A stretch of DNA of 55,035 nt, the filler included, from Jimgerdemannia flammicorona (Eukaryota), in the NCBI GenBank assembly GCA_003990765.1. It is 2 parts of 2 records of this genome, joined end to end, with 100 filler letters (N's around TTAATTAATTAA, not from the genome) between each part and the next. Parts side by side here need not be neighbours in the genome. Positions count along the whole stretch, not along the records: positions 27,597 to 55,035 come from RBNJ01000627.1; 1 more part is not named here. One strand, written 5' to 3'. The position numbers and the translations under genes were made by a program. Below, piece after piece: positions 8,979 through 55,035 of this stretch (position 1 is the first letter of the stretch; the number at the start of each line of letters is the position of its first letter). Under the pieces are notes generated by a model, which ran no database searches, had not been told where the DNA came from, and saw only the letters and a program-made list of their open reading frames with translations.

Positions 8979-11900
8979 TCTTCCTCCTGAATAAGGATCT
9001 TCTTGAATATTCTTATTCATTAGTTCAGTCCTGAAAAATTTGCTGATTCCATAACCTCTGGCAAGGGGTCAAAAAGTGATATTTATAAGCTAATGTCTTC
9101 TCTATATATTTTGGCATAATGGTGAAGAGTCACTCCCTTCATATAGAGAAAGGACCTGATTCTGATCTTAACCAATCAGTTGACAGTTCAAACTCCTCTA
9201 GCTTTGAAAGTCTCATAAATGAGTAGTTACTAGTGCTATATCCCTTAGAGAATGGTCCAGACAGATTGCCTACTGGTCACAGGATATGCTGTTATGATTC
9301 ACAGACTAGAACCTCATGGGTAGTCATCATATTTTGCTTTTCTTGTATAGGTTTATGGTACTTCTTGAGTCTGTTCCTGTGTACTGTGATAGGCAGTATA
9401 GTTTTTGAGATTTTTTTAAACCAGAAGATAGTTCTTTTGATATCTTGTACATAGAAGGGTCCTTCCCATTTGGGCTCCAGTTTTTATGACTATGAGGCTT
9501 CTACTATATTTCAATACAGTAGGATATTTTCTCTGATTTGGATAGGTTCTAGGGTCTTGTAATTCTTTTCTGCATTTTTTCTTATTAGTACTTGTAACTT
9601 GATGATATAATCTTCAGTCTTCTTCCTGATTTGGTGTAGTCTCCAGATTTTCAAGTCAACTCATCTCCAAGTTAGGTCTAGATTTGTGGCTGAGGTTCTA
9701 TCAGAATCTTCTTCTCTGAAGAGCAGTTCTCTTAGAGTAAAGTGTGTGCTCTATGACTGTATATCTTATAAGATAGAGAGAGCAGTTGGGAGGTAGTTAT
9801 CCCAATTCTCATATATGTCTGAGATCTTTGCCAGGATGTTCTTGAGAGTCTTATTGGTTCTCTCTATCTGTCCATTTTCTTGAGGGTGGTACATGGTAGT
9901 CTTAATGTACTGAATCTTGTATTTCTGATATATTATCTTATGGAATCCATTGACAAATTCTGTACCACAGTCTGTGGTGATTTGCCTTGGTGTCTTATAG
10001 TAGCAGGTGATTTCTTAGTATAAGAAGTCAGCTATAAAGAGAGCATTGACTTCTTATAATACTCCTGCTTCTATCCATTTGATAAAGAGGTCTATAATAA
10101 CTATAATATAGCAGTTTCCTGATAGTATTACTGGTAGTGGCCCAATGATATTCATTACAATGTGGAAGAAGGAGACAAGCTCAATTCTTGATGACCTGGG
10201 TGCCTGGTCTTACTGATCTTATTTCTGTTTTTGGCACTTATCACACCCTTTGACAAATTGGTGTTGATCTTCTTCCATCTTGGGCTACTATATAGTTCTT
10301 CTTGCCTTATTATATGTATTGATTCCTCTTAAGTGTCCTTATTTGTGTACTTCCTTCATTACTTGATACTTCTTGTATTCAGATATTACAAGCTTTTCTC
10401 CTTTTCTGAGTATAGTATTATCTAGTTCAAACTGTTTCCAAGTCTGGTTGATAATAGTGATTGTTCAGAGTTCAAGGTGGTTGGGCATCTTCCACTGCCC
10501 AAGGTAGCTAATTAATCTATAGTATAACTTCTTATTCATGTTGAATAGTCTTGATGGTCATATTTCGAATATCTTTGAAAGTATATCAGCATTGGTGTTA
10601 GTTCTCCCTGAGTAGTGCTTGACAGTACAGTCATACTCTTATAGTCTGTAGATCTATCTGGTATATATTCCTCTGGAGTTCAGAGTGTGAAATAGCCAGG
10701 CAAGAGCAGAATGATCTATTTAAATAGTGAAGTATTTCTCAGCTAGGTAGTAGTGGAACATGTCTACTGCCTAAACTACTGCTAAGTATTTGAGCTTGCA
10801 TAACTCTTAGTTTTGTTCTGCTCTGTGGGTACCTCAGCTTATATAAGAGATGACATATTCATATCTATCTTTCTTCTGAGCTAAGACTGTTTCAAGTTCT
10901 ATAGCACTTGCATCTGTCTGCAGGATGAACTCTAGGTTCCAATCTGGTCTTCTAAGGATGGGTGCTTAGATCAATCTGGTCTTGAGTTCATTGAAGGTTT
11001 CTTAGCATTCCTTGGTCCATTCAAATTTAGTCTCCTTCTTCAGTAGCTTGTAGATAGATGTTGCAATATTGGAGTATCCTTTGATAAATCTTCTATAGTA
11101 AGAGGTCAGTCCAAGAAAGACATAGACTTCTATAGTTGTTCTGAGTCTCAGGTAGACTGCAACAGTCTCAATCTTCATGAAATCTATATGGATTCCAGTA
11201 TGATTGATGAGGTATCCTAGGTAGGTGATTTCCTGAGTCACAAACTTGCACTTCTTAGACTTGATATAGAGGCCATGCTCCTTGAGCTTCTTGAGGGCTA
11301 GCTATATATGGTTGATATATTCCCATATAGTATTGCTAAAGATGATCACATCATCAATATAGACAAAGAGTAATTTTCCAATCTCATTGCTAAAGACTCT
11401 ATTCATCATTCACTAAAAAATTGCTGGGGTATTGTATATTCCAAATAGTATTTACAGATAGATATAGATGGCATTAGGTATAATGAAGGCTAATTTCTCA
11501 CTGACATCTTGAGTGAGACCAATCTGATAGAAGCCTGAGAATAGATCCAAGGTGGTGTAGTATTTGGCTTTACTTCCAAGAGTGGTAAGGATTTTTTAAA
11601 TATTTGGCAAGAGCTGCTTATCCTTTTTGGTAATTATATTGAGCTTCCTATAGTTAATGTAGAGTCTTAGGGCAAACTCTCCAGACTTACTTCCTTTCTT
11701 TGGGGTAAAGACAATGGGTGAAGCCCAGAGACTGATAGCTTGTTTAATAATTTTGGCTTCTTCCATTTCCTTGAGTTCTGCTTGCAGCCATTCTCTATAG
11801 GCAGGTGGTATAGGTCTGGCTTTCTGGTAGATGGGCTTAGTATCACCAGTATCAACTTCATAGTAGTACTTGGGTTCTTGATTGTGGATATCCCTGAAGT

Positions 11901-12049
11901 CTATAGTAAGTACTTCTTCATTCTAGTATAGGATCTTGAGAAGTTGCTCTTCCAGGGAAAAGTTTTCTCCAATAGTATATATGTGCTTATTCTGGTCCTT
12001 ATCTTTCTTGTACTCAAGTTTAGTAATCTTGGTGGCAGTATAGACTCCT

Positions 12050-12430
12050 CTTCCAGTAGATCCAAAGCCTTGTTCTCCTCTCTTGGTCTTGATGAGTTTG
12101 ATGGCTTCAGTGATCTTGGGCTTATTGATTTCATGAATCAGCATCTGATCAATCCTATTATACTTCTTGACTTCAAATGGGGTGGTAGGGTTGTGATTCC
12201 TAACTATGAGGAAGATCTTACCAGTATAATCAGGATCAATTACTCCTCCTTCAACTGAGATTTCACCTTTGGCCAGACTGCTCCTGGTCTTGATAATTCC
12301 AGCATAGTTCTCTGGAAACTTGACCCCAATTCTAGTACCAAGTAGAGTGGTGGTCTGTGGTTTGAGAGTAGCATCTTGAATGCTGGCAAGGTCTATTTCT
12401 ATGGCTCCTTCAGTCTTATATTCTGAGATT
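12050..12430 (-). pseudogene. dUTPase domain of Gypsy A, between PR and RT
   Basis: Trimeric dUTPase motifs RSSLA, GGVIDPDYTG and RGEQGFGSTG. Confidence 0.9.
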
Positions 12431-12839
12431 TTGGCTTTGGGGTGAAACTTCTTAACCTTGAGGGTGATGTCTGGTTCTTGTTCCTCCTCATTATTACTGT
12501 CATCTTGAAGCTCTGGGGGCTGGTCATCTTCTTTAGCTTTCTTTTTTGCTTCAGTAGCTTCTTACTTATGCTTCTGTTGACAGATTTTCCTGACTTCACT
12601 GATACAGGACCAGCAGTCATTCAGGTGTTCAGAGCAGTACATTCTAGTACCATGGGGGCATCTTCCTTGAGGGGCATAGCCATTGATGATCTTGTTGTAT
12701 CACTGCTCATCTGTGAGCTTGGGTGTCTTGTTCTTATTCTTGTTCACTGAGTGTATGAAGACTTCTGTGTTCTCTTCATCTCCTTTCTTCATGTCTGGTA
12801 GAACTTCTTTGTGGACATTGATAGAGACTTGTACCTTTA

Positions 12840-12955
12840 GTCAAGTCCTTCGGGACCGCTGACACTTGAAAAAATTGGAATGATACAGAGAAGATTAGCA
12901 TGGCCCCTATACAAGAATGATACTATCTTCCTGAGTGAATAGCCCTATATGGGCA
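12840..12955 (+). ncRNA. U6 snRNA retrocopy (pseudogene)
   Basis: 5' stem GTCC-TTCG-GGAC, then the core ATACAGAGAAGATTAGCATGGCCCCT. Flanked by the 17-bp TSD AGAGACTTGTACCTTTA (12823-12839, 12956-12972). Confidence 0.93.
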
Positions 12956-14981
12956 AGAGACTTGTACCTTTATTTCTCTATAGTTGATCTGTATCTTCTG
13001 GGCATTGAGGTCAATGATGGCCTTGGTCTTATAAATCTATTGATTGCTAATGAGGATGTCATAGTTGGTGGCACTTGTAATAATCACATCTACTGGAATA
13101 GTAGCTCCTCCTATCTTGATGAGGACTTCTCAGATTTTGCCAAGGGAGGTAGCTCATGTATCATCTACTATGACATAGACTATCTTGGTAGACTCTTCAA
13201 TGTCTCAGCCTAGGCAGTCAATTGCCTTCTTGCTCATAAGGCATCCTCTAGCACCAGTATCAATGATGGCATCAAAGATACAATCTTCAATCTGACATGG
13301 GGTATAGGCTGATATCTTGTACTGGTCTTCAGATTCTTTATCTGAGTCTTCTTAATCATCTTCTTTTATATTGTGAGCTTCTACAATCTTGTACTCTTGA
13401 TTCTTGATAGTAGTTGTAAGTCCTACTCTTAACTACTATCTGAAGGCAGAGACTTTAGCTAGCTGTCCAAAAGTAGCATTGATCTTCTGTTCCTTGAGAT
13501 CTTTGTAGATATTATACTGGTGGATCTTAGTCTTATATAGCTTCTGTTCTCTCTTGCTTTCACTTTCTTCTAAGACTAGAGTAGTATATTCAATAATTTG
13601 ATAGGCAGCTTCATTTAACTCTATGTCTTGATCAATCTTCTCAGATTGGATCTTGCTTTGAATAGTGACAGCTGGGGTCTTCTTCAGTCTTTCAACTGGC
13701 TTGCTGTTGCTCTTATTGTCATAGGGCTTAGACTGGGTTCTGATATCTTTAGTAGCAGGGTAGAATTCGAGCTCTTTGTAGTATTCTTCATCATCAGTAT
13801 TACCAATCTTCTTGATGACTACTGCATTGGTTTGTTCTCTAGTTCTGGTAGCATTACTTGGTTGAGCTTTGTATCTTATTTCAGTTATGCAATTCTTTGC
13901 ATAGTGGCCTTTTTCTCTACATCTGAAGCATGTGATATTATATTCTTCTATAATAGCTACACATCTCTATACTGGTCTCCTGTTGGCACTTCAGACTTCT
14001 CTAATAATATTGCCAAGGTGTGCAGTCATCTTGATGAACTGCTTGGCAAGTTCCTCCACTAGGTCAGCTTTGGCTATCTTGGAGGTAGGTGGAGATGATT
14101 GTCTATTTACAATTGTGGTGGGTATAATACTAGTTGGCTTTGATGACTTCATTTTGATGCTAGTTATTTTCTCCATTAAGTGTTTGGTGGGGTATCTGAC
14201 AGTTTAATATCTCTGTACAAAGACTACTTTCTGATCAAGGGTTGGTGCAGCTGGGGTAAATCAGATTGCTAAGGCAATTTCAGAGCGAACTCCTTTAAGA
14301 AAGGTTGAATCTGCTATTTGTTCCTTAAGATAGTCATCATAGTCAGTCAAGATAATCTGATAGTAGATTTGGATATAGAATGAGTTGGAATCTTCACTGA
14401 GTCTCTGGCAGATAGTATTGAGTTGATCCTTGAGAGCTTGCTTGATCTCTTCAGTATAGTATATAGTTCTGAGAAAGGTCTTCATATAGATAAGTCTGGC
14501 TGCACCAGTATTAGCAATAGTGACTGCATTGAACTTATCTCTGACAGGTCCTCTGAGGCTGACTGATAGAAGGACTAATTGTACATCCACATTGAGGACT
14601 TGTAGAGTGGCAAATTGTTCAAAGTCTTTAATGAAGGTCAGGATTGACTCTTCAGTAGTATATCTATAGAATATAGAGAGATGTATTTTTATCTTATCTT
14701 GAATTCATACAGGGGTGACTCTTGTAGTCAGGTAGTTATTGTAGTAGTTGTTTATTTTTCAGCTTGAAAGTGAGGGATTCATCTTGAATCATCAGCCAAT
14801 GGGTACTAAGTTGTTATGTAGTAGTTGCTGAGTCCTTCAAATATATCAGATTCTCTTTAAAATATATCTCTTAGACTAACTCAAGTTTGTTATAAGCAAG
14901 TTCTTATTGAAGTATCTTCCCAAGGTCTTATAGTCCTCAAACTTCTTATCTTTAAACTGTCATATTATCTCTTAGATTGCT

Positions 14982-16396
14982 TGTAAGAGATTGTGTGTAA
15001 GTGAATCAGAACTGACTTTATTTCAGAAGAAATAAGAAGAATATTTATACAAAATATAATTCAATAGTTACTAAGATATAAAGCTAAATATAAATTCCAA
15101 TAACCAAATAAAATGCTGGAACACAGAAAACTGCTAAGTTTCAGGATTGGTACAGATGGTTGTACAGGTTCAGGATGCTGGTATAATTTCAGTAATATAG
15201 GAAAATAGTACTGGAATAATTCTGAGTTACACAAGATCAGAATGCTGATAGAGGAATAGCTGTTATATAGGAAATAGATACTAGCATAATTCAGTATAAC
15301 TAAGGGACTTAGAGCAGAATGTTCAGGACTATGAGGGCTTCATCCTCATCATTGCTGAAGGAGATGATGTCTATAAACATTTTATCCATCTCATTATATA
15401 GGTTATACATTTCGTGTATATCATACATTTTGCATACTTCATGTATATCATGTGAGATGACATCATCATATTCAGTGGCAGCAGAAACAAGGAGGTCTGG
15501 AGCTCTCCAGTCTATGAGGTTCTCTTCCACAAAATAGAGAACAAATGTGGGGTCTTGGAGAGATCTAACCTGGATACTTGGGCATTAGAATACTGAGATC
15601 AATCCTTATAAGAATTGATCTGAGTTGTCCTGGAGGATGGGATATCAGAAGTCTTCTACTTCATCACTATTGAGGGTAATAGTGGACTAGACTTCTATAG
15701 CCACCCTGGCTTCTAGTATATTGATATAGTAGGCTGATAGATCTCTGAAGTCTGAGACTCTAATATACTCCAAGTTGGAGATCAACTATAATGTATACCT
15801 GAAGATCTGATGAATCTTCTTAGCTGTCCTTGCTTTATATATATTCATAGGAGTGATATCTTGTAACTCTTGGGGGCTGGTCTGTAGGAACTCTCAGTAG
15901 AGAAGGTTTCCTATTTTGTACTCTTGCTACATTTGGAGGTATTTTGTAGCAATGGTGATCTTTGTTTCTATTTCATAATGATAGAGAATAAAATGATAAG
16001 GATCTCTGGTATCTAGGTCAAGGTTAGAAGTTCTTCTTATATAGATCCTCATGGCTCTTCTGATGTCTTGAAATATCCTTTCTTTAACTGAGGTACCTTG
16101 GTGATTTCTTGACCTTGAGGTTTAGTAAGCAGCAGATATTTCATTTGTAGTAAGTCTTTGAGCTATTTTGGGATTAGTGGGTCTTATTGAGTTGCTGCTA
16201 CTGTAGTTCTTTGATCCTTCTTTTATATTCCTCAAGGTACTTGTACTGTGGTCACAATGACTCATAGTTGGTCATCATTGCTCATCTTATAGCCTGGGTG
16301 AGTCATGCCATATAATCTTCTTGTACTCTGATCTGATGGCTTATAAGAAATTACTGTCTCTTATGCTGATATCATTATTCTGAGGTCACTGTTACA
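14982..16396 (-). repeat. 5' LTR of Gypsy A (~1.4 kb)
   Basis: TGTAA...TTACA termini; homologous to 8790-8978 and 53750-55035. Confidence 0.88.
15309..16139 (-). pseudogene. LTR-embedded accessory ORF, decayed copy
   Basis: Colinear with 53991-54827. The start codon is mutated to ATA. The C-terminus reads EENLIDWRAPDLL...IVLNILL. Confidence 0.8.
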
Positions 16397-30184: not shown

Positions 30185-30950
30185 TATAATAGAATGAATG
30201 AGCAAACAGATGAGATGCAACAAATGATCACATGACCCAGTGATGACATCATCATACAATTGAGCATGACATACAAATGAATGATGTGAAATGATGTGAA
30301 AAATGATATCTAGCTTATCTCTGACAATTGGTGCCACAGCAACTATTATCACAGCAGCTGATCATTGCCTAGTAATTGAGGTCCTGATCACAAAGTTGTT
30401 TTTACCAAAAACCACCTAACAAAGGTTATGATCACAAACCTCACTATAGTTACCAAATTAGTCACTCATACATAGTCAGAAATCACAGACCAACTTGTAT
30501 AAATACCCCCTAGTTTCCATTTGAAATAAAGCAGTTTTAGTTCAGTCCTTGATACAAAAATCAAGTCCCCCCACACACACACATTCTTCTGAGTTTAAGT
30601 AATGACATCTAAGTGACTCTAGTGTTTCTGACTAAACTCTAGAAGCCTAGCTAACTTCTGCCAGAACTGAGACCAGTATATAAATCTCCAAAGACTTAAG
30701 TAAACCTATTGAACCTAAATTCCAAGGCGAATTCAGTCTGTGTACAGCAAAGAACAAGACCCTTGAAAGATAGGGCAAATCAGAAAAAGTCCTTTGAAAT
30801 AAAAGGCACTGCTACTACAACTACTTATAAGTAAGTGCTTCCTCAAACTGAAGGCTTCTTGGTATATATTGTGTACTAAGTCCCTAAGTAATAGTCTTAC
30901 TTCTCTAATATCCAAAGGATAAGAGAGGGGTAGAAGTGAGAGTCATTACA
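30185..30950 (+). repeat. 5' LTR of Gypsy B
   Basis: Direct repeat of 45098-45853. TATAAATA at 30498, AATAAA at ~30525, ends TTACA. Confidence 0.93.
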
Positions 30951-31440: not shown

Positions 31441-31442
31441 AC

Positions 31443-34146: not shown

Positions 34147-34284
34147 AATTTGGCAAGTCCTAGGGGTTCGCAGATAAGTTGGTTGGCCTTGTGAAATATT
34201 TAATATCTTTCAAAAATAATAAAAAAGGTAAAAAACCCTGAGGACTTGGCCTGGAGTTTGCGGCCCAAGTGGGCAGTAGTTGGT

Positions 34285-35335: not shown

Positions 35336-35339
35336 AGTC

Positions 35340-37717: not shown

Positions 37718-40700
37718 ATGGTACTAGGAAACCACAGATCCAGGGACCCATCAGCTTATAATTGACCAAGCTTACAAGAATCTATACCAGGCCTTTAGGA
37801 CTTACCACCCAGGACTTAGAAATATAGTCAGCCACCATACGTTCTACAAACTTCTCTATAAATATATTAGAACCACTAGGACCCCAGAATCTACTGCTGC
37901 AGCCACTCAGGATTTTTTAGATTATATCTCACCCCCTGCTGCAAGAGAAGCAGCTGCCGAGTAGATTACCTCTGACAGATATCATCATACCCACCAAGAC
38001 CTCACTCTACTACAGGTTAGTTGTATACTATACCTCTGCCATAACCTGGTATGAGAATGAGCAAGCAGGCCACCCACCCCCTACTGCTGAACAAGAAGCA
38101 GGCCCATCTACTTAGCCAGAAACTGATATTTGCTTTGAAGGACCTAGTCAGTACAAAGATGCACTATCTCATCAGGAAAGGAAGTCAGACAAAGACTCTA
38201 CAGGTTACCAGTCTGACAATAGCCAACTAGAAATAGTAGGCCTAGGAATTTACCAAGGAATTACAGATTAAGAAAATCAGACTCCAGAACCAACCCAGCC
38301 ACCTATATAGAGATTTGGGTTACCCTTCCTCACAGGACTCTTTGATCTGATATCTGGGAATCAAGTAACCCCAAGTCATATAGCACTACAACCTCATCAG
38401 GAAGATCAATCTTCAGGAGAATCTACCCCAATAGGCCTACCACCAATAGTCAATACAATGATAGATGTCAATATTACAGCACTGACTACCTAGCTAGCTG
38501 CACTAGCAGGAATAGTAGAATAGATTGCTGAATAGAACAAAACAACCAAAACTTTGCAAATCCCAACATTCAGTGGAAAAAACAGTGATATTGAAAACTT
38601 CATCAATATAGTTGATATAGGTTACCAAGCAAACTAATAGAATAACAACCAAGTGCCTATAGGAATGCTCACTAATAATCAGAACAATACTCTTCAACAG
38701 TTGTTTACCACATCAGCAGTACAAGTGGAAACAGTAGCCACATTCTTCACTAAAACAGCAGCTGAATTCTGGCAAATCTTGGAATAGCACCCAGTAACCT
38801 GAAAAAACCACCCTCAAGTCAATAGACAAGCACCTGCCAACAATAGACCAGGTTGGGATGACTATGAAGCAGGCCCAGGACTCAAGGCCCTGCTACTGAC
38901 CAAATTTCAAAATGCAGTCTATATATAAGAAACTTGGAACAAACTGTCTCAGATGAAGTTCTACAAGAATGGTGAAGAGGATCTTGAGATCTTTGCCACC
39001 AGAATGGATACCTACCTCAAAACCATTGGACTTACCTACCGGGAGAACAATTAGGCCATCAATAGTACCAGAGCCAACCATCTCTTTGCAGCTCTACCAG
39101 ACTGGCTCACCCAGAAGATCAAGGAACAAGGTCTTCTCTAAGGATGCCCCCACTATTCATAGTGCTTTGCCCAAGTACAAAGAAGAGCCTGTGAAATCCT
39201 TGCTGCACAAGCCTCATGAAATCAGGAACATAAGAAGGATAACCAAGATAGGAGGAATCCTACTAGGAGAAATGATCAAAGGAATGATCAAAGGAACCAG
39301 CAAAACCCCAGAGGACTCAGACCTCCAACTGAGGATGAAAAAAAGCAGCTCTGCAAAAAGAGATTGTGCTTCATCTACAAGAAGGCAGGACACATCTCAT
39401 TCAAATGCTCTGAGAAGAGAAACAGATCAGGCAAACCCAGTAACCAGAACATTACTATTATTAGAGAAGGCCCAGAAAAGAAGAACTCTGAGAATATCAT
39501 CAAAGCAGAAGATATGGTACAAGGCTACTATCCCCACTAAGGCCCACCCAACTGATACTGGATATGACCTCTACAGTAGCCAAGACCTCACTATCTCACT
39601 AAGTACCAATGCTACAGTGCAAATAGAGATTGCAATACAAGCTCCCAAAGATATATATATCTACCTTATTGAGCGAAGCAGCTTAGCCAAAGAGTTCAAC
39701 ATTGGGCTAGGAGGAGGAGTAGTTGACCAAGGATATACTGGTGAAATCCATATTATCTTGTGAAATTTTGGAGACACATCATTTGAAGTCAAAGCAGGCC
39801 AAAGAATCGCCTAAGCAATCATTGAAGAAATCCATTAAGATCTCACCATTGAAGAAGTCCCCAAGTTCTCTCAGACAGACTATGGCAAGAAAGGGTTTGG
39901 ATCAACCAACAAACCTTCTAGTCAAAAGGTCACAATTATAAAGAAAGATGATGAAAACTGGTACAAGAGAATTGCAAATGGTTATATACCATGTGGATGA
40001 TACCCTCATTCTATTCAAATGTACTACATGGAACATGTTAATAAATGCCATATATGCCTCTTCAAGGTTTTTAAAATCAACTCTGAAAGAAACCAAGCCC
40101 AAAAGACTGAGGAACTCAAACAAGACCACTCTCCTTGTGAAGGATGGGGAGAAACTGACTTCAAGGAGACTAATAGCAATTGGGACAATAATGAAGAGGA
40201 AGAGCTCAACACCATCAAGAAGGAGGACAGTTGTATCAAGTTCACAGACCAAGTTCACAGACAAAATGTCAATGTCTTACTTGATAGCAGTGCTACTGGA
40301 AACTATATCAGCACCAAGACTGCCAAGAAGATTGGAGCCTGAAGCAAACCAGCTACCGAAAAAAGGATTATTATCTTTAGTGATGGCAAGACTGTACCAC
40401 TGACTAAGATCTGTGAAGACCTCTTGCTTAAGATTGGCAAATATCAAGAGAAGTTGGACTTCAGCATTGTAGACCTCTCAGGACAAGATATTATCCTAGG
40501 AAAAGCCTGGTTGACTCAGCACAACCCAGATATTAACTAGAGGACCAATGAGGTTAACCTGATCTATGAAGGAAGAAAGATCACCCTGACACCCCAGGAA
40601 GGTACCAACTATCAAGGAATTGAAATCATCTCTGCCATTCAAATGAAGAGACTCTCTCAAAAAGAGGGAAACACCTACTTCATCTGCACAGTACAAGAAG

Positions 40701-43600
40701 TCACTGAAGCTACAAGTAGCCCAATTCCAACAGAAGCTCAAGAACTATTTGAAGAGTTCCAAGATATATTCCAGGACCCTCAAGGACTTCTACCTAAACA
40801 CCAAATCTAATATGAAATTGATCTTATTTCAGGATCTGAACCTCCTTATAAGAGTATCTATCAATTGACCCAACCTGAACTTAAGACCCTCAAGGATAAG
40901 TTGACCAAACTACTGGCCCAAGGATATATTGAATCTAGCCACTCTCCATTTGGAGCCCCCATCCTATTTGTCAAGAAAAAGGATGGCTCTCTGCAAATAT
41001 ATATTGACTACAGAGCCCTTAACAAAATTACTATCAAGAACCAGTATGTCTTACCCAGGATTGATGAGTTGTTACACCAAATCTTCAAGGCCAAGATCTT
41101 TTCCCTACTAGACTTGCAAAATGGCTACCACTAGATTCTTATTGATGAGAAGGACATTGAAAAGACAGCTTTCCAAATACAGTTTGGATACTACTAGTTC
41201 CGAGTTATGCCTTTTGGTTTAACCAATGCTCCAGTAATATTCCAGTATCTGATGAATGACATCTTTGGACCACTCCTCAACATTTGTATTTTTGTATATA
41301 TTGATGATATACTAATCTACAGTGAAACAGTAGAGTTATACTACACCCACCTCAGATAGGTACTGACCCTTCTGCGAGAACACCAGCTCTATGCTAAGAT
41401 GAGCAAGTATAAGTTCTATCAAGACCAGATTGAGTACCTAGGACATATCATATCTGCTGAAAGTATCAATGTGGACTCCCAAAAGATATCAGCCCTCAAG
41501 GATATTTCCATCCCTACTACCCTCAAGCTACTCCAGCACTTTCTGGGTATTGTCAGTTATTACCAAAGATTTATTCAAGGATACTCTGCTATTGTAGCCC
41601 TACTGACCAGCCTGGCCTACAAAGGAGTAAACATCAAGACTGAATGGACTCCTGAATGTACCCAGACTATGGACCATCTCAAGAGACTCCTTACTAAGGC
41701 CCCAGTGCTAATTGCACCTGACCCTACTAGGCCATTCACTCTGACCACAGATGCCTCTGATATTGCCATTGAGGCAGTGCTCAGCCAAGAAGACCACCTA
41801 GTAGCCTACCTTTTCCAAAAGCTCAAGCTAGCTGAGATCTGGTATACTATCTATAAGAAGGAACTCCTGGCCATTGTTACTGCTCTCCAGGAATGGTGCC
41901 AGTTCCTTCTAGGATAACTATTTATGATCTACACTGATCACCATGCTCTGTAGTATATTCACATATAGCCCATACTGACCCACAGACAAGCCCACTGAAT
42001 GGAAATTATTGCCAACTTTGATATGGAAATCAAGTATATCCCAGGCAAAACCAACTGTGTGGCTGATGGTTTTTCCAGATATATGGGAGATGAACTTGTC
42101 TTCATGGTCAAGATAATTGGAGACCTTACCCAAATGATCAAGAATGGCTATCAGCAAGACAGCCCTCTGATGAAATTTCTTCAATTCTGCCAAAATCCAG
42201 AGGCCAAGGTCCCAGAACTCATGAGGCAAATGTCCAAGAGATTCTCTTACTGTGATGGACTTATCTACAGGGACCATGACAGAGTAGTTATACCCAATAA
42301 TAATACTCTGTGGCTCAAGATCATGCAGGAACTCCATGATACTCCTGCAGCAGGACACTTCAGTTTTGAGAAGACCTATAACCTCCTCTCAAGAGAGTTT
42401 TACTAGCCAAAGATGACCAAGGACATCAAAGACTTTGTGGCCTTATGTGAGATGTGCCAAAGATTCAAGAGTAGTAACAAGCTACCAGCAGGACTTCTGC
42501 AACCTCTGCCAATCCCAAGTCATAACTAGGATCAGTTTGCAATAGATTTCATTGTCCAACTCCCTAAGACCAAGGTTGGATGGGATGCCATTGTGGTATT
42601 CATAGACTGCTTAAGCAAACAAGCCCATTTTGCACCCACTAAGACTACCGCTACTATACCAGAAATTGCCAAGATTTTCCTCAACCAAGTATTCAAACTA
42701 CATAACATGCCTAGCACCATTGTATCTGACTGGGATGCTAAGTTCAAAAGTAACTTCTGGAAGGTATTTTTCTCTCTCTATGGAACCAAGCTGAAGTTCT
42801 CTACTGCCTACCACCCTCAGACTGACAGTCAAACCAAGTGAATCAATAGGACCCTCAAACAGATGCTCAGCATCTTCTACTGCTACAAGCAGAATGATTG
42901 GGACAAGTACCTAGCCCATGCTGAGTTTGCCTACAACAACAGTTAGCAAATCTCTACAAAGAAGACTCCATTCTTTCTGAACCACAGTCAATATCCAAGG
43001 ACCCTGAGTACCACTGTAAAATCAGCAGTCCCAGTAGCCCAAGATCTGGCTGAGACCATTTCTGATCTTACTTGAATGACAAGAGATACTCTCATAGAAG
43101 CACAGGACTACCAGACCAAGTATGCAAACTTGAAGTGAAGAAAAGTCTCTTATAATATTAATGACATAGTCATGCTTAGAACAGACTATCTCCACCCAGA
43201 TACCCTGGCACAATAACTGGTCAAGAAACTCTATACTAGAAGAATTGGACCATATAAGATTGTGGAAAAAGTCAGCAAAGTCAACTATAAGTTGCAACTT
43301 CTCCACAACATCTAAGTACACCCAGTATTCCATATCAGCCAATTGGTGGAATACTATGAGAACACATTTTCTGAGTATACAGTTCCACCTCCACTTCCAA
43401 TTAGGATCAATAATCAAAAGAAATTTGAAATTGAGGAAGTACTTGACTATAAGATCCACAAATATTCCAAAATAGTCAAGTGGATTTTTCTCATCAAGTG
43501 GAAGGGTTACCCCACCCATGATGCTATCTGGGAAAAAGAAGAAGCTCTAGAGAATGCACATGAAGTTCTCCAGGACTACATGGAAACACTCACCCCCTAG
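37718..43600 (+). pseudogene. Gypsy B gag-pol (stops, frameshifts)
   Basis: Knuckle [40 protein letters not shown] and YIDD, RH TTDASD, IN HDTPAAGH and YHPQTD, chromodomain FEIEEVLD...LIKWKGY...DAIWE. The start is approximate. Confidence 0.93.
39510..39910 (+). pseudogene. dUTPase domain of Gypsy B, between gag and PR
   Basis: Motifs TGYDLYS, RSSLA, GGVVDQGYTGEI and GKKGFGST. Confidence 0.93.
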
Positions 43601-44258
43601 CAAAGGAAAGAACTACAGCTCTAAAAATTAGAGCACATAGCAACAGGAGGATGCTATATATTTTTATCCAAAACATATATTACTGAACATTGCAGAAAAA
43701 AGAAATACTATAATTGAGAAGACACTCAGACAAAGGACAATCTAGCATAGTACAGCAAAACACATTTGAACAACTCTATTTCACATCATCTATATCATCT
43801 CCACTGGATGATGATAGATACTTCATATGAAACTTAGAAAAGCCAACAATGTCAAAACCAATCTAAGCCCATCTACATGATAGATATTATTACTTAGGAA
43901 TTGCCTCAGATTATAAGAAAGTTTATTTTCAAGAGGTTCGAACCCCCAGCCATGACAATGAGAGCTCTTGTCCTAGACAAGTATGGTTAGTCCTTGTAAA
44001 TATATCAACCAGACAAAAAGAAAGAGAACCAAGACCTACTAACCCTGTGTAACTATGACTACAAGTGACAATATCTTTAAAATCAGGATCTTCTCATGTG
44101 CCCAGTATATGCCTGCTTACAGCAACAGATCATATATTTTGCTGGAAGGTATAACCAAAAGAAGGTCACACCAGATGGGTGAATAAGTATAAATACCCAA
44201 GGCAAGAATGTCCCACAACTCTCACCTCTCTCCTCACAAAGAAAAGACAAAGACAAGA

Positions 44259-45086
44259 ATGCCTGCTATCTGCCACCAAACTGCCTGTCATAGCCAGCTC
44301 CTCCCAAGCCAGATTGACTGCCTTTTTGGACACATCCAGATTGCCATCCAAGGAAGGAACCACTGCTCTGAGGCCCTTAACCTCTTCAGCCCAGACCTAG
44401 GACAGTACGTCCTTGACCACTATGAACTTATCAAATGGACCTACCTTGCTATCAGCCACCTAGAGATCTAGCATGAATACAAAGTCAGCCACCAGCTTCT
44501 TCAACATACAAATGGCCTACCTACTGACCAGGTCTCAGACAGGACCCACCTGGACAGATATGAGCAAAGACTTACCAAAAAGGTTCATCAAATCTTGTGC
44601 CATGCACCCTTTGCAATCCCCAACCTCAACTATGTCCAACTGAAGGATTTCCAGAACCTCTCTTTCCCTGAAGTGGATGCTCTAGAGATCAAGGTTGCCC
44701 AAGAAGCCAACTCCTGGATTGCCCTCAAGTCCACTGACTGTGAACCCCACTAGAGCCTCCTCCTGAATGACAACCCAGACCAATTGCTCCAAGGCCTCTC
44801 TGACCTCTTTGAAGGACTATCTATTCGAATGGATATCCTCAGGCATGAGGATTAAGAACCTTACTTAGATGGTCTCAACCACATCAGATGGAGAACCCCT
44901 ACACTAGCATCCATCCCAATGCAAGAACCATTTGCAGACCTCATTGACTTCTCCATCCTGGACAGCAAGCCATCAGCATCTACCCCCCCTGCCACTGAAG
45001 AAGATGGCAACAAACCTGAGGAAGACTCTCCACCTTTCTCTCCCCTGGTTCTCAATTTCCAAATCAATGAGGATATTGATTTCTAA
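44259..45086 (+). pseudogene. Accessory ORF of Gypsy B (275 codons, 3 internal stops), function unknown
   Basis: Single frame MPAICHQ...PLVLNFQINEDIDF*, ending at the PPT. Homologous to the LTR ORF of family A. TATAAATA at 44188. Confidence 0.85.
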
Positions 45087-45097
45087 GGAGGGAAGGA

Positions 45098-45853
45098 TAT
45101 AATAGAATGAACAAGCAAATAGATAAGATGTGATGAGTGATCATATGACCTTGCAATGACCTCATCATACAATTGAGCATGACATACAAATGAATGATAT
45201 GAAACAATGTGAAAAACAATATCCAGCTTATCCCTGACAATTGGTGCTGCAGCAACTGTTACCACCGCAGCTGATCATTATCTAGTAATTGAGGTCCTGA
45301 TCACAAAGTTGTTTTTACCAAAAACCATCTGATAAAGGTCATAATCACAAACCTCACTATAGTTAACTCATACTTAGTTAGAAATCATGGACCAACTTGT
45401 ATAAATACCCCCCAGTTTCCATCCAAAATAAAGCAGTTTTAGTTCAGTCCTTAATATAAGAATTAAGTCCCCCCACACACACACATTCTCCTGAGTCTTA
45501 GTAATGACACCTAAGTAACTCTAGTATTTCTGACTAAACTCCAGAAGCCTAGCTAACTTCTGCCAGAACTGAGCCTGATATATAAATTCCCAAAGACTTA
45601 AGTAAACCCATTGAATCTGAATTCCAAGGTGAATTTAGTCTGTGTACAGCAAAGAACAAGACCCTTGAAAGATAGGGAAAACCAGAAAAAGACCTTTAAA
45701 ACAAAAGGTACTGCTGCTACAATTACATATAAGCAAGTACTTTCTCAAACTGAAGGCTTCTTGGTATATATTGTATACTAAGTCCCTAAGTAATAGTCTT
45801 ACTTCTCTAATTATCCAAAGGATAAGAGAGGGGTAGAAGTGAGAGTTACTACA
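45098..45853 (+). repeat. 3' LTR of Gypsy B
   Basis: Follows the PPT (45085-45097), ends CTACA and is followed by the TSD. Confidence 0.93.
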
Positions 45854-45858
45854 ATAAG

Positions 45859-46180
45859 CCAGACTTTGCAAGCCTTGTACTTATAAGCTTAGCCAATAGC
45901 TGATATTATATAATATCAGCTTATATATACATCATATCAGCTTGTAACTGAGCTTGTCTAGACTTGTAAGTACAAGGCTTGCAAAGCCTGGCTTATGCAA
46001 ATCTCACTTTAATTTTACTTATAAATCTCACTTTAATCTTGCTTGCAAATCTTGCTTTAATCTTGCTTGCAAATCTTGCTTGAATCTCACTGAAAATCTT
46101 GCTCAAATGCACTACAAATCTCACTCAAACATCATTGCAAACCTTGCTTACTTGGGGCTTATGCAGAATATGCTGAATCA
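45859..46180. repeat. Hairpin 2: core and right arm (left arm continues at 30032-30184)
   Basis: Perfect 24-bp palindrome AGCTGATATTATATAATATCAGCT at 45898-45921. 45995-46180 is the reverse complement of 30032-30184. Confidence 0.85.
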
Positions 46181-47068
46181 TGCAGAACACACTAAATCTC
46201 CAAAGTATGTTTGCTGTTTGCAGTTGTATAATAGGTACCAGTTCACCATCCATATATATTTATTCATCCATCCTCTATCCACAATTGATCATTAGCTATC
46301 ACATCTTATGCTGCCACCTCATTACTCTCCATCTTGCTGCCTCCCAGCTCACTGACTCCTGTTCCAGGCCCCACAGTTTCTGGCTTTCTCCACTACTCAC
46401 TGCTTCCCCCCAACTCTCCACTCCCTAGTTCACTGCTCCCCCAGCTCATTCCCCAGTTCACCACTCTCTAGCTCACCACTTTCTAGCCACTTTCTAGCTC
46501 TTGGCCTCTCACTCAAGCTTCCAGTCCCTGCCATCATCAAACACTTTTTGAAATGTCTAAAGATCAAGAAGTACATTTAGGAGAAATCTCAGAACTATTA
46601 GATAATATATTGGAGGATATATTGGAGGATATATTGAAGGATATATCAGATATCTCCACCAGTTCATTATTACCAATGAGTATGAGAATAAAAATAAAAA
46701 TAAAACCTGGTGATAGCTGGATATAGAATCATGCTACAAAGGTAGTTTTATATATTATACTAATGGTTGCATTCATAGGGATGGTTGGTCTCATCAGTCA
46801 TAAGGATGGTCAGTCATAAGAGTGGTTAGTTGTAAGTGGTTGAGGTTCTAATATAGTCTCACATCTCTCTATTCAAATAGAATTTACAAAGTAAGCTCAT
46901 CAGTTGCAACCATTGTATGACTTGGAACTATATATTGAAGAATGGCAATATCAACAATCTTAAACAACATCTCTGGAAGCATCACAATACCATGCTCTTA
47001 TCTCTCTAGCATACTGAGAATCCTTGCTGGTCTAAGAAAGATGATATTATAAGTATGAATAGAATGGA

Positions 47069-47082
47069 GGAGTCCAAGTGAC

Positions 47083-47121
<39 letters not shown>
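47069..47121 (+). mobile_element. Extremely 5'-truncated LINE (17 nt plus poly-A)
   Basis: GGAGTCCAAGTGACTAT matches the LINE 3' terminus. 18-bp TSD AAGTATGAATAGAATGGA at 47051-47068 and 47122-47139. Confidence 0.92.
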
Positions 47122-47126
<5 letters not shown>

Positions 47127-47739
47127 TGAATAGAATGGAATTTGGGAAGTACTTAAGAGGTTATTAGAAAAATAATTTATCAAATTTTATTATTACAAAT
47201 AGGAACATATTAGCAAGACTTTAAGTGATGAAAATTTCTATCAGTTAATTGCCAACTTCATTGTCACTGGATATCAGCCATTCTCTACTATCGAAAATGC
47301 TAACTTCAAGTATCTCTTTCACATATTATACCATAATCTGGCCCTTCCATCAGCTGATATGATTTCATATATTATTCAAAAGGAATTTAAACAATTGTAG
47401 ACTCAAGTAAAAGCAAAGCTAGCAGGGTTCAAGTCAAAGGTGTTACTTACACTTGATTGTTAGACATCAGATATTAACATCAAGACCTTCCTTGAAATAA
47501 CAGCCTATTGGATTGACAGTGATTGGAAGATATATGACATTATCTTAGACTTTATAAATATTAGCGAAATAACACACATGGGTGCCAATCTTGCAAAAAG
47601 TCTAAAGCTGGTAATAGATGATTTATAGCCTAGTGACAATCAAATAATTACTGTTGTATGTGATAATATCTGTAACAATGATACTCTGTTTAAGAATTTC
47701 CATCATCTGCTTGCTCATGTATACTGTTTTGAGTATGTG

Positions 47740-50700
47740 TTTTTTTTTTTTTTTTTTTTTTTTATAGTTACTTGGACTTCTCTTTATTATCACAATTTAT
47801 AAATAATAATACAATTTCACCCCACTCCTCACCCAATACTCCTTGGATCTCCTTCCCTACTCTCCATCTCTCCTCAATGGAGAATAACCCAGCCACCCAC
47901 CACCTGAACCCTCTCTCCACTTTTCTAATAGATATACATACAACACCAAACTCTGTCAGCCCCACCCACCTGGTCCCACCCCTCTTCACTAGCTATTCAA
48001 AATGTCAAGTATTAACCATTCCTATCATACCACTCTAGCCCTAACCTCAACCTACTGGCCCTCCTCAAAAACATATAGCCAATATCCAGCCAGCCTAACC
48101 CAAATTGCCAAAACCCATCCCAAGGTTTACCACTCATTCCCAACCCTGCCCACTAATCTTTGGCAGAGGTCCCCCCATTGCCTCTCTTCCCCCCCCACTA
48201 GGGCCTACAGCTCTAACAAGTTTGCAATATAGTGCCAAAACTCCCCCAGGACCTCATACTCACTAAGTCAATGTTCAGGCATTTGTACCACTCCACCCTC
48301 TTGGCCAACATTCAAACACTCCTCACACTCAAAAGTACCATCTGCCACCAAGTGCCCAGACTGATAGTTCAGCATCACATTTCGCCTTAGAAACCTCCAC
48401 CATACTACCCAGAACTTGGGGGGAAGCCAATGCATCACCTGCTTGCTCTAAGGCCAAAGACCATTCCAGTCTCACTCCTCACCAATCCCTACTCTCTGCC
48501 ATGCTTCAGGCCATAGGTCTCCCCCAAGGCCCCACATATAATCCATTCTATTGCCAAGCAGGAAATCCTCCACCAATACACCTCTCAGCAGTAGCCTGTC
48601 CCATCTCCACATCTGTGGGCCCCAGTCCTCCTCTCTTTCATTGCCCTGCCACTAAAGTCTAATTCTCCTTGCACCATCTACCACTCTCCATCAAAAACCT
48701 TTATACCTCATCCTCCTGCTCCCATCCAAGGCCACCATTGCAAGCAGGTCACCAGTCACTCTACAAGGGGAATACTAGACTTCTCACACCCTCTGCATGA
48801 GTAGTACCTACTCCTGGCCCCTCAACTCGCTCACTCTCTTTAGCCACTATGCTCTCAGGCAATGAAGGCATTTGGTAAAGTCTACCAAGCCTAGCCTGCC
48901 TCTGTCAACAGGCAGAGTCAGAACCTCCCATCCAATCTGACTTTGCCACTCAGCCCAGATCTATGATCTTGCTATCTTCAGAAGTTGTCTGACTACTCAC
49001 ACCAGGAAGTCCAGATGATACCCCACATACTATAGCTTCAGCAGCCAATATACATTTAGCACCATCACCCTTCCTGCCAAGGATATATACCGACCACCCC
49101 ACCTCAAAAGCACATTTCCCCATACTAGGAGCCACTGTTTCTACTATATATAGGGTAGGAGAGACCTATATACCAAAAGGTAGATCTCTAAATAATAGAC
49201 TGGTTCCCCTGCTGGCACTATCATTCCAATTACATTGCTGCTAACTATTCCACTGCTGAGCACCAGAGTCTCATATTTGTGCCAGTTGAGTTTGATATCT
49301 GAGCTCCTCTCATATCATTCAATCGACCTTCATAATTCCTCCACATCCTCTAATGAATCCAGTCCAACTACTATATCATCTGCAAAAGTCCCCACTTTCC
49401 AGTTAATTCTCAAGATATCCAAATCTCCAATTCAATGCCTGATTCTGTCCAATAGGGGCCCCAAGGAAAGGGCATATAAGATGAGTAACAAAGGGTCTCC
49501 TTGCAGCACCCTATGACCTAGTGGGAAAGTTACACCTCAGTACCCATTCACCACCAATGCTGCTTGACTGTTCTCTAAGAGACTGATTAATGACCTCCTG
49601 AACTCTGGGGGAACTCCCACCCATTTCAGCACCTCTTCCAGCCAGACTCTCCTCACCCTGTCATATGCCTTCTCCTGATCCAGAAACACTAACTGGCCAT
49701 TAACCCCAGCTGCCTGAGTTCCTTCAATTACCCCATGAACCCAGGCAGTTCTATCTCAAATCAACTGTCTACAACAAATCCCCTCTGCTCCACCCCTAGT
49801 ATCTGCTGAGTGATCCCCTGCAGTCTAGTTACCAAGATCTTTGTCACTGGCTTGCAGTCTATGTCCAGAAGCATGATCAGTCATCAGTTCTTCCAATCTT
49901 CTCTTCTCCCCTTATCCTTATAGAGCAAAGAGACCAGCCCTAGATGCTGGCCCCCAATCCATGATTCAGATTGAAGGACCTCATCACTTATCACCATTAT
50001 CTCCTCCAATACCACCTCTATCCCAGCCATCTTCTTCCAAAAATCCCAGAGAAGCCCAGCCTCTCCTAGAGCTATCTCTTTACTTGTTGAAGCCAAGACC
50101 TTGCATACTTCCTCCCCTCTCACTGAATCTCTCAGTATCCCCAGGCCCATAGCTGGGTCTGGATACCAATCCTCCAAATACCATTCAATGTTCAGGGCAT
50201 CCTCACCCCCTTCTTCCTCACTCCATAGATTCCCCCAGTGAGTCCTTAGCAATCCCAAAATCTTAAAAGTCCCTGCCACCATCTCCCCATCCTCATCTAG
50301 AATCCCCTCCCACTGCTGTCTGGTTCTCCAAGCCTGAAGTAACTGTGAAAGAAATCTGGTGGGCCTCTCCCCCTCCTTCAACCCCTGCCACTACAACCTT
50401 GCTACCATCCCCTTCAACTGAGCCTCTTCTTCCATTCATAGCACATCCTTTAACTCCTCAACTTCCTATTGAATCTACAGAATTTGTCAATTGGCTGCCC
50501 CCCAATCCTCCAGTGACCCTGCCCATCTCCCCAGAAGTGCCACCAATCTCTGTGAAGCCCATTGCACTCACTGCCACTGCTGAGCACTTCTTCCTTTCCC
50601 TGCCTCTCTCCAGTACCTCTGAGCACTTGATTTCAGCTGCTGCCAGCAATTTCCAATTGCCAATCCCTGCTCCCACCACCTACTAATCTTCTCAATAACT

Positions 50701-53749: not shown

Positions 53750-55035
53750 TGTAACGGTGACCCCAGAATGATGACATCAGCACAGGAGCAGCCTTTCTTT
53801 GCAAGTCACCAGATTGGAGTACAAGAAGATCATATGGCATATGAGATGAGCAATGATGACCAACTGTGAGTCATTGTAACCACAGTACAAGCATCCTGAA
53901 GAATATAAAAGAAGGATCAAGGAACTACAGTAGCAGCAGCCAATAAGAACTATCAATCCCAAAATAGCTCAAAGACTTACTACAAATGAAATGCCTGCTG
54001 CCCACCAAACCTCAAGATCAAGGAACCACCAAGGTATCTCAGTTGAAGAGAGGATGTTCCAAGACATCAGAAGAGCTATGAGGACCCGCTCAAGAAGGAC
54101 TCCCAGTGTTAACCTGGGTACTGCAGATCCCTATCACTTTATCCTCTACTGCTTTGAGATGGAAACAAGGATCACCATTGCTACTGAATGCCTCCAAATA
54201 TGGCAGGAGTACGAAATAGGAAACCTCCTCTGATGGGAGTTCCCACAGACCAGCACTCAAGAGCTATGAGATGCCACTCCCATGGATATATGTGAAATAA
54301 GGACAGCTAAGAAGATCCATCAGATCTTCAGGCATATACCATGGTCGATCCCCAACTTGGAGTATGTTAGAGTCTCAGACTTCAGAGATCTGTCATCCCA
54401 CCATATCAATACACTAGAAGCCAGAGTGGCTACAGAAGCCCAGTCCACTATCACCCTCAACAGTGAAGAAGTAGAAGACTTCTGGCATCCTATCCTCTAG
54501 GACAACCCAGATCAATTCCTGCAAGGATTGATCTCAGTATTCCAAGGCCCAAGCATCCAGGTTAGATCTCCCTAAGACCCCACATTTGTTCCCTATTTTG
54601 TGGAAGAGAACCTCATAGACTGGAGAGCTCCAGATCTCCTTGTTCCCAATTTCCCTGCCACAGCTGAATGTGATGATATCATTGGTGATGATGTCATCTC
54701 GCGCAACATTGACATACATGAGATGTGTGACGAAGCACATGAAAACGATGAATTCGCAGATCTCATCTCCTTCAGTGATGATGATGACAAGGATGAAGCC
54801 CCCATGGTCCTGAACTTTCTGCTCTAAGTTCTTTATTACACTGGATAATGCCAGCACCAGTATTCTTATATAACACTGGATAATACTAGCATCCTGAACC
54901 TGTACAATCATCAGTACCGACCCTGGAACTTAGTAGTTTTAGTTATTGGAATTTATATTTAGCTTTATATCTTAGCAACCATTGAATTATATTTTGTATA
55001 AATACCTCTCTTATTTCCTCTGAAATAAAGTCAGT
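53750..55035 (+). repeat. Family-A LTR, less mutated copy, running off the window end
   Basis: Begins TGTAACGGTGACC and is the reverse-complement homolog of 15011-16396. Confidence 0.93.
53991..54827 (+). pseudogene. LTR-embedded accessory ORF (278 codons, 4 internal stops), function unknown
   Basis: ORF fragments 53991-54233, 54282-54500 and 54600-54827 share one frame. The stops are TGA/TAG/TAA, as expected from C->T. TATAAAA at 53904. Confidence 0.87.

Follow-up and report, generated by a model that had tools for sequence, protein, structure and literature searches.

A Conserved Accessory Gene in Two Ty3/Gypsy Lineages, Next to the Polypurine Tract in One and Probably Within the LTR in the Other

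Introduction

Extra open reading frames (ORFs) are common in LTR retrotransposons, and a function is known for almost none of them. Among the retroviruses, genes that are located in or overlap the U3 region of the 3' LTR include sag of MMTV, tas/bel of the foamy viruses and nef of HIV. The foamy-virus tas/bel region has an internal promoter, and the Tas protein contains an acidic activation region.

Several related systems have been described in plants, fungi and rotifers. In plant Ty3/Gypsy elements, extra ORFs of the class eORF-3'F are defined as sense ORFs of at least 250 codons located between pol and the 3' LTR, and the occurrence and type of the extra ORFs track the RT/RH/INT phylogeny (Neumann et al. 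2019, PMC6317226). In fungi, chromoviruses with a dUTPase are known, such as PosPlaTy3 of Postia placenta, in which the position of the dUTPase varies; an 'additional ORF with unknown function' is among the features named in the legend of Figure 3 of the respective paper (Novikova et al. 2010, PMC2864245). The Boty-like elements of Botrytis cinerea provide another example of an extra gene in a fungal Gypsy element, the antisense gene brtn (cited in PMC8365987). In bdelloid rotifers, the same ORF3 types are found across LTR-retrotransposon lineages, which was read as gene sharing, and several of the ORF3-bearing lineages also carry a dUTPase (Rodriguez et al. 2017, PMC5408684).

In this study, an accessory ORF present in two families of Ty3/Gypsy elements, here called family A and family B, is described and discussed. 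The analysis covers a stretch of 55,035 nucleotides (filler included) from the Jimgerdemannia flammicorona assembly GCA_003990765.1, which is referred to as the window. According to the original prediction, which was made from this DNA, the same accessory protein is encoded in both families at different positions, and it would be a selected module that was exchanged between lineages and possibly belongs to an undescribed family.

Accessory Open Reading Frames in Two Element Families

The window overall is a mosaic of decayed retroelements. Family B is a 15.7-kb LTR element on the plus strand. Its 5' LTR (30185..30950, +) and 3' LTR (45098..45853, +) are ~88-90 % identical, and the element is flanked by the 5-bp target duplication ATAAG (30180-30184 and 45854-45858). 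A primer-binding-like sequence, TGGTAGCAGTGG, is located 3 nt past the 5' LTR (30954-30965, +), and the core of the 3' LTR consists of TATAAATA at 45400-45407 and AATAAA at 45427-45432 (both +). Pol occupies a single frame (39521..43585, +), in which Pfam, applied to the frame read with X at the stops, recognizes a dUTPase (39521-39907), protease (40211-40561), RT (40970-41452), RNase H (41645-42019), integrase (42302-42817), Tf2-type SH3 domain (43163-43354) and chromodomain (43424-43585).

A spacer of ~670 nt separates the end of the chromodomain (43585) from the accessory ORF of family B (P0001; 44259..45086, +), which has 275 codons and a TAA stop. The frame, read with X at the stops, is interrupted by three in-frame stops at codons 71, 165 and 199 and by no frameshifts, and this copy is a pseudogene. 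The terminal stop codon (45084-45086) is directly followed by the polypurine tract (PPT) GGAGGGAAGGA (45087..45097, +), in agreement with the predicted location of the ORF between the chromodomain and the PPT. With its 275 codons, its sense orientation and its place between pol and the 3' LTR, it fits the eORF-3'F class of the plant elements. A candidate promoter of the ORF is the TATAAATA box at 44188..44195 (+), 71 nt 5' of the ATG.

The gag-pol region of family A (9910..13933, -) contains, according to Pfam, a zinc knuckle (13933-13889), protease (13306-13010), dUTPase (12435-12052), RT (11676-11212), RNase H (11019-10633) and integrase (10371-9910), all on the minus strand, and no Chromo match at E <= 0.01 was found in it. 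A B-type primer-binding site was not found within three mismatches at a sensible place, and the window holds no tRNA genes. The PPT of family A, AGGAGGAAGA (8988-8979, -), is followed by TGTAACAGTGACC. The LTR start, TGTAAC, occurs directly after this PPT at 8978 and is found again at 16396(-) and 53750(+), and this recurrence indicates that all three are family-A LTR starts. Of the 3' LTR, no more than 188 nt remain (8978 to 8791, -), and they adjoin a GC-rich repeat whose terminus is at 8783. This repeat was probably inserted in the 3' LTR, since the same terminus is found at 53495 in another copy of the repeat.

The 5' LTR of family A probably extends over 14982..16396 (-), from the TGTAAC start at 16396 to one of two candidate ends, ..TTACA at 14982 or ..CCCA at 14800. 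It contains a TATA box ahead of the ORF (16227-16221), the core TATAAATA (15049-15042) and AATAAA (15022-15017), all on the minus strand. Between these signals lies ORF copy 1 (P0003; 15309..16139, -), which has eight stops before the terminal stop, no frameshifts, and has lost its start codon. The second LTR copy (53750..55035, +) begins with TGTAACGG and runs past the window end. It holds ORF copy 2 (P0002; 53991..54827, +), with 278 codons plus stop, four internal stops and no frameshifts, followed by the TATAAATA/AATAAA core.

The family-A ORFs begin 255-257 nt (copy 1) and 241 nt (copy 2) past the LTR start and therefore fall outside the eORF-3'F class. We infer that the family-A ORF is located inside U3 of the LTR and is thus copied into both LTRs, because an LTR must be unbroken from its start to R/U5 and the core, which matches the one inside the family-B LTR, is found 3' of the ORF; the downstream boundary of this LTR is itself deduced, as the 3' LTR stops at 188 nt and copy 2 reaches the window end.

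Prompted by the 188-nt length of the 3' remnant, a model with a short LTR was also considered for family A, in which the LTR would be ~190-200 nt long and the ORF would be a leader ORF ahead of gag. This model was rejected on four grounds. The 188-nt remnant is without a terminal CA, and it adjoins the common terminus of the GC-rich repeat (8783 matches 53495). The sole TATA would be ~20 nt from the end of such an LTR, which would leave no room for R/U5, and a TATA/poly(A) core like that of the B LTR sits 3' of the ORF.

A tblastn search of the window with the family-B ORF recovered both family-A copies in gapless alignments, at 53991-54638(+) (E 4e-29, 35 % over 216 aa) and 16076-15492(-) (E 5e-21, 32 % over 195 aa). 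The BLASTP alignment of P0001 with P0002 is likewise gapless (E 1e-34, 38 % over 178 aa). This significance gives the pairwise statistics that the original prediction had called for, and the A and B ORFs align over their length, with both A copies, likewise read with X at the stops, full-length in one frame. The six pairs of short peptides on which the prediction was built were all recovered, among them FADLI.FS and P.VLNF at the C-terminus. These comparisons confirm the homology of the A and B ORFs, far beyond chance. The differences between the two hosts that had been pointed out were found as well: the LTR sequences have no significant DNA similarity outside the TATA/poly(A) core, the protease precedes the dUTPase in A and follows it in B (Pfam), and a Chromo match is obtained in B only (Pfam).

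Layout of the Gene at the 3' End of the Elements

In addition to the three copies in the window, one copy with readable surroundings is present on an independent metagenome contig (L001). A TATA-type box is found before the ATG in all four copies, at 71 nt (B), ~75 nt (L001) and 88 nt (A). The leader AAAGACTTACYACAAA just 5' of the ATG is nearly identical in L001, which is of the B type, and in both A copies, and the in-frame translations of this leader differ between L001 and the A copies. The layout of L001 is that of family B to the base, with TATA, ATG, stop, PPT and a TGTAAT LTR start, and a 19-nt stretch across the ORF end and PPT has the same sequence in the two. Upstream of the ATG, L001 holds a stop and 51 nt, with no pol frame 5' of the ORF. 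These observations suggest that the conserved unit consists of the promoter-like box, the leader and the ORF.

The distance from the ORF end to the TATA of the LTR core is 260 nt in A and 314 nt in B, with sense orientation in both. This TATA/poly(A) core is the sole significant non-coding similarity between A and B (z 4.7), and in B it lies inside a proven LTR. For the other non-coding flanks, z is below 3 in 14 of the 15 segment pairs compared, and the LTR starts and spacers are not alignable. An exact 11-bp palindrome, TGATGACATCA, is present close to the 5' end of the LTR in A as well as in B.

On this basis, the accessory gene is proposed to be part of a cassette consisting of the TATA box, the short conserved leader and an ORF of 270-290 codons at the extreme 3' end of the element. 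In family B and L001, the cassette lies between pol and the PPT, with the stop codon touching the PPT. Family A has its PPT and LTR start 5' of the cassette, which would place the cassette in U3 and in both LTRs. In either layout, the cassette may give rise to a separate transcript, a short mRNA of its own that would start at the cassette promoter and end at the LTR poly(A) site. The claim that the gene occurs at different positions is formally correct. It is internal in B and probably in the LTR in A, but in both families it is at the 3' end, with its own TATA and 260-314 nt from the core. The difference in layout comes down to the side on which the PPT/LTR start is found, 3' of the cassette in B and 5' of it in A. 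The two layouts, internal and U3, offer a natural experiment on the movement of the PPT/LTR boundary.

Relatives, Selection and Predicted Structure

Relatives of the protein are rare. A profile of the three window copies retrieved 5 proteins among 2507 candidates from ~5.8 billion proteins. When 1.84 billion representatives were scanned exhaustively with HMMER, 8 matches were obtained, one of which is a spurious ankyrin-like repeat protein. A profile search of wider scope added no further members, as its 3 matches among 2910 candidates had been found before. The relatives without internal stops span 138-342 aa, those taken as intact 214-342 aa, and the full-length ones are P0005 (271 aa), P0012 (342 aa) and P0018 (291 aa). 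Uninterrupted members are found in an A-like lineage (P0005), a B-like lineage (P0011) and a third lineage (P0012), in addition to more distant members, and their annotation is 'hypothetical protein' at most. A metagenome search with a 6-row alignment yielded L001 as the one locus among 87 pattern matches, and the same search of viral contigs yielded no loci among 50 pattern matches. The L001 ORF (P0018) is intact, has 291 codons and is of the B type, with 50 % identity to P0001 at full length (E 3e-85). Like the family-B ORF, it fits the eORF-3'F class.

The substitution pattern shows that the protein has been under selection, since replacement sites are much less diverged than the saturated synonymous sites. 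By the Nei-Gojobori method, pS and pN are 0.70 and 0.27 for B compared with L001, and 0.75 and 0.45 for B compared with A copy 2. None of the three window copies contains a frameshift. In a soil-metagenome DNA run (X1), 611 short contigs related to positions 43000-46000 were found, and their differences are mostly transitions. Among the 12 indel rows listed, of 15, there is no frameshifting indel within the ORF, and at one or more of the stop positions of the window ORF a sense codon is present in this run. The CpG observed/expected ratio in these elements is 0.02-0.08. The window copies were killed by transition mutations. Together with the intact relatives, the pattern in run X1 indicates that they are dead copies of a gene that is functional now or was so recently. 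The accessory gene is thus real and conserved beyond the window, and the proposal of a selected protein-coding module is supported by the intact homologues found elsewhere and by pN well below saturated pS.

The proposal that the protein belongs to no named family was also confirmed in the databases searched. With hmmscan, no Pfam families were matched by P0001-P0003 at E <= 1, and for 13 members at E <= 10 only three noise-level families were obtained (best E 0.088). The best match among PDB sequences has an E of 0.13, and Foldseek found nothing at E <= 0.001 in PDB and BFVD. In the ESM Atlas, the best scores were 0.89-0.92, for unnamed clusters and with recognition under the threshold of the tool. 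A search for forms fused to Pol, which is rated as weak evidence, gave none among 7848 candidates of 600-2000 aa.

The AF2 model of P0005 has a mean pLDDT of 66, with a helical core at residues ~60-160 (pLDDT 80-96), a long helix at residues 47-83, a small beta element and a disordered stretch at residues 218-271. A second AF2 model, of the core of the L001 protein, is poorer (mean pLDDT 61). In a wide structural search with VIA-align, none of the 48161 chains reached Z >= 5. The best structural likeness, over model residues ~65-153, was to 3vwb_A (Z 4.1, rmsd 3.9, 76 aligned), 1zx4_A (Z 3.6), 3mkw_B (Z 3.4) and 3mky_P (Z 3.2). These ParB/VirB/SopB-type helix-turn-helix DNA-binding domains make up 4 of the top 34 structural rows, at Z values that are far too low to be meaningful for helical proteins according to the guidance of the tool. 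The structure prediction that had been suggested as a check gave a confident helical core and no match to a known fold.

The composition of the protein changes along its length. Residues 1-60 carry a net charge of +8 in P0005, +4 in P0002 and +3 in P0018. The final third of the protein is strongly acidic in all lineages, with a net charge of -14 to -20. The C-terminal tail contains the conserved motifs F.DLI.F and [VI]LNF. The Kyte-Doolittle hydropathy maximum (19-residue mean) is 0.59-1.05 in six members, and the usual cut-off for membrane segments is ~1.6. The AF2 model is that of a soluble, helical protein. As there is no transmembrane-like segment, the protein is not env-like.

Origin and Possible Role of the Gene

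The original prediction combined selection with an exchange of the module between lineages. The first part stands and the second is not supported by the degree of divergence. Between A and B, the accessory ORFs are 33-38 % identical, and the Pol domains are 23-39 % identical: 23 % for the protease, 27 % for the integrase, 37 % for RNase H, and 39 % for both RT and the dUTPase. For gag, there is no match between A and B at E <= 1e-3. Since a later swap would have left the ORF clearly closer than Pol, a recent exchange is not supported, and the equal divergence of ORF and Pol matches co-divergence from a common ancestor. As only two elements carry both the ORF and pol, this equal divergence fits vertical descent or an ancient transfer. 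The history proposed here is that dUTPase-bearing Ty3/Gypsy lineages would have diverged deeply, each keeping the cassette. That an old cassette was passed down together with pol, and that the PPT/LTR-start segment was later rearranged once relative to it, is considered marginally probable, and such a vertical history is the most economical. The conservation of an accessory gene to the same degree as RT is unusual in itself, which counts against plain inheritance.

Movement of the cassette between Gypsy lineages, or its capture on two occasions, is an unlikely explanation that nevertheless deserves consideration. Non-homologous recombination during reverse transcription could have placed the cassette 5' of the PPT in one of the lineages and within U3 in the second. 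The two hosts are very unlike in domain order and chromodomain, with gag sequences that have no match at E <= 1e-3, and the ORF is conserved at least as much as RT and far more than gag. The leader DNA is conserved between the A type and L001, so a unit of promoter, leader and ORF could have moved, and the common 11-mer palindrome in the 5' parts of both LTRs could mean that the cassette flanks a homologous landmark in opposite ways. If the LTR starts are homologous, the cassette is on opposite sides of this landmark, and a true relocation or a separate insertion would be needed. In bdelloid rotifers, ORF3 types common to unrelated retroelements have been observed (PMC5408684). Against an exchange, the identity of the ORF is no higher than that of Pol and the synonymous sites are saturated, so that any transfer would date back roughly to the time when the lineages separated. 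In addition, the orientation is the same and the distance to the LTR core promoter is nearly equal in both families. Another explanation is that the elements captured a gene of the host, or that an element gene was domesticated and is under host selection. Several of the database relatives sit on short contigs, and three distant members, P0014, P0016 and P0017, could be of cellular origin. This is very unlikely, since LTR-element landmarks surround all four copies with a readable context (three in the window and the one on L001), hundreds of related contigs are present in run X1, as expected for a repeat, and the family is very rare among ~5.8 billion proteins. Finally, the stops in all three window copies could suggest chance open frames or mis-aligned low-complexity sequence in place of a gene. 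That is virtually out of the question, being refuted by the E of 1e-34 between A and B, by the E of 3e-85 between P0001 and the intact ORF of L001, and by a pN far under saturated pS.

The role of the protein can be discussed in terms of its composition. With one basic end, a core of helices and, in the acidic tail, bulky hydrophobic motifs, it has the look of an acidic transcription activator. A tentative suggestion, more often wrong than right by our own estimate, is that the protein is a nuclear regulator of the LTR of its own element, either an activator or an anti-silencing factor; it is derived from the composition and from motifs known in other activators. Such a regulator could be of use to elements that are as heavily mutated, and presumably methylated, by their host as these are. 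The main functional rival concerns the same gene with the same history, and assumes that the protein is an RNA-handling adaptor that helps the genomic RNA to leave the nucleus or to be packaged, comparable to HIV Rev. This alternative is rated as quite improbable. It agrees with the arginine-rich N-terminus in the A lineage (net +8 for residues 1-60 of P0005), with the long helix 47-83, which could mediate oligomerization, and with the short hydrophobic C-terminal motifs, which could be export signals; the B-lineage N-terminus is only weakly basic, and no likeness to any RNA-binding fold was found with Foldseek (PDB/BFVD) or VIA-align. A precedent reported among LTR retrotransposons is CERV of the Caenorhabditis elegans element Cer1 (PMC10309623).

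The regulator proposal and the U3 layout can be combined. It is conceivable, with a rather low probability, that the proteins are retrotransposon nuclear regulators acting on their own LTR, encoded in one lineage by a gene that resides in the LTR and is complete with promoter, ORF and poly(A) signal. If this is true, every LTR of the family-A type, solo LTRs included, would be an autonomous protein-coding unit, and this would be the first description of a regulatory gene of this kind within U3 of LTR retrotransposons, which are probably fungal here. The fold of its product would be absent from the PDB. If the U3 layout is true, solo LTRs could keep making the protein after loss of the element, which would open a route to trans-complementation or host domestication. 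The accessory ORF is an unusually tractable subject, as its conservation equals that of RT in two lineages with gag genes too diverged to be aligned. It has intact members and encodes a confident helical core without a known fold and conserved motifs in an acidic disordered tail.

Comparison with Described Systems

The B ORF resembles the eORF-3'F class of the plant elements in sense orientation, size and place, and tracking of the phylogeny, as reported for the plant ORFs, is also the pattern favored here. The likeness is one of layout. The elements in the window are not of a plant-type lineage; they carry a dUTPase together with a Tf2-type SH3 domain and chromodomain and are fungal-like. The plant class does not extend to an ORF internal to the LTR, as proposed for family A (PMC6317226). 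The position of the dUTPase in elements of the PosPlaTy3 type, either N-terminal to pol or between the protease and RT, corresponds to that in family B and family A, respectively. The additional ORF in the figure legend of the same paper can be compared by description only, and it may belong to the same family as the accessory ORF, which bears on novelty (PMC2864245). The gene brtn, again compared by its description, is antisense, whereas the accessory ORF is sense (PMC8365987). The ORF3s of the bdelloid rotifers belong to recognizable families (env-like, GDSL lipase and DEDDy exonuclease), and the accessory ORF is without one; the rotifer case was read as sharing, whereas the pattern of divergence between A and B needs none (PMC5408684).

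A literature search, conducted by words and not by protein sequence, found no description of this protein, and no account of a retrotransposon ORF within an LTR was found. The new aspects appear to be the unnamed protein family and the unusual layout, with a probable residence in U3. Plant Gypsy elements are already known to carry sense ORFs in the interval from pol to the 3' LTR, rotifers to have shared ORF3 types and retroviruses to have U3 genes.

The U3 genes of the retroviruses differ from the cassette in that no sequence or fold likeness was detected in PDB and BFVD and in that the host here is an env-less LTR retrotransposon. They are similar to it in their extreme 3' place and may also resemble it in the 3'-coterminal layout and, in the foamy viruses, in the presence of an own promoter. 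The proposed regulator would work in the same manner as Tas of the foamy viruses and Tax of HTLV, to which it is probably unrelated.

Conserved Sequences Flanking the Accessory ORF

The unnamed accessory ORF of about 275 residues is common to two dUTPase-bearing Gypsy families, the chromodomain-bearing family B and a second family, A. Directly 5' of its start codon lies an untranslated leader, AAAGACTTACYACAAA, which is near-identical in L001, an independent metagenome contig with a B-type ORF (leader region 256-387), and in both A copies (53871-54002 and, on the minus strand, 16130-16261); the same region of the window B copy is found at 44139-44270. The near-identity between L001 and the A copies contrasts with the saturated synonymous sites in the ORF. 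In-frame translations of the leader are not alike between copies, indicating that its conservation acts at the DNA/RNA level.

At the other end of the ORF, the window B copy (45068-45097) and L001 (1234-1262) share 19 identical nt that run from the final codons through the stop into the beginning of the polypurine tract (PPT). The B-lineage ORF continues 8-25 codons past the VLNF motif and reaches the PPT, whereas in the A-lineage ORFs the LNF motif is followed by two more codons before the stop (LNFLL), so the ORF end appears, from the sequence, to overlap this cis-acting priming signal.

Organization of the Family-B Element

The family-B element spans 15.7 kb (30185-45853), and its 5-bp target duplication, ATAAG, is perfect. 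An inverted repeat is present on both sides of its insertion site (30032-30190 vs. 46012-46180, 77 %). The 5' LTR and gag-pol are separated by approximately 6-7 kb of unassigned sequence, part of which is a block of GC-rich tandem repeats (34268-34946). From the dUTPase to the chromodomain, the coding sequence stays in one frame for about 1,350 codons, with stops as its sole interruptions.

A segment of about 90 aa is conserved between A (12478-12720, minus strand) and B (39941-40204, plus strand) at 36 %. In A, it occupies the protease/dUTPase interval, and in B, the dUTPase/protease interval, with the order reversed. Because this segment lies between dUTPase and protease in both orders, the change in dUTPase position involved more than a simple move of the dUTPase domain by itself.

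Mutational Decay and the GC-Rich Repeat

Transitions predominate in the decay of the elements (8791-16399, 30185-45854 and 45855-55035), with transition/transversion counts of 70/9 for the B LTR pair, 175/38 for the A LTR copies and 15/1 in the A 3' LTR remnant. The changes fall mainly in CpA/TpG context, and all ORF-disabling changes seen are stops, with no frameshifts. In the same three segments, the observed/expected CpG ratio is 0.02-0.08, compared with 0.19 for the GC-rich repeat (1-8783) and 0.59 for 16400-30184. This pattern is consistent with RIP-like or methylation-driven mutation in the host. Separately, two runs of 44 N each occur at 27497-27540 and 27553-27596.

The GC-rich repeat family is present as two diverged copies (1-8783 and 48059-53495), which are 65-72 % identical, have a GC content of 50-55 % with strong C skew, and contain internal duplications; an RVT_1 match is located at 1828-2130 (minus strand). 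The repeat probably inserted into the A 3' LTR, since its right terminus (8783 / 53495) adjoins the truncated LTR in one copy.

A Palindrome near the LTR Starts

The 11-bp palindrome TGATGACATCA has three exact copies in the window, two in A (8949-8959 and 53769-53779) and one in the 5' LTR of B (30241-30251), all within the first 20-67 nt of LTRs. At one mismatch or fewer, 16 matches are found in the window against 2.0 expected. This shared motif hints at homology between the A and B LTR starts, and it may represent a U3 cis-element common to both families, resembling a bZIP/CRE site.
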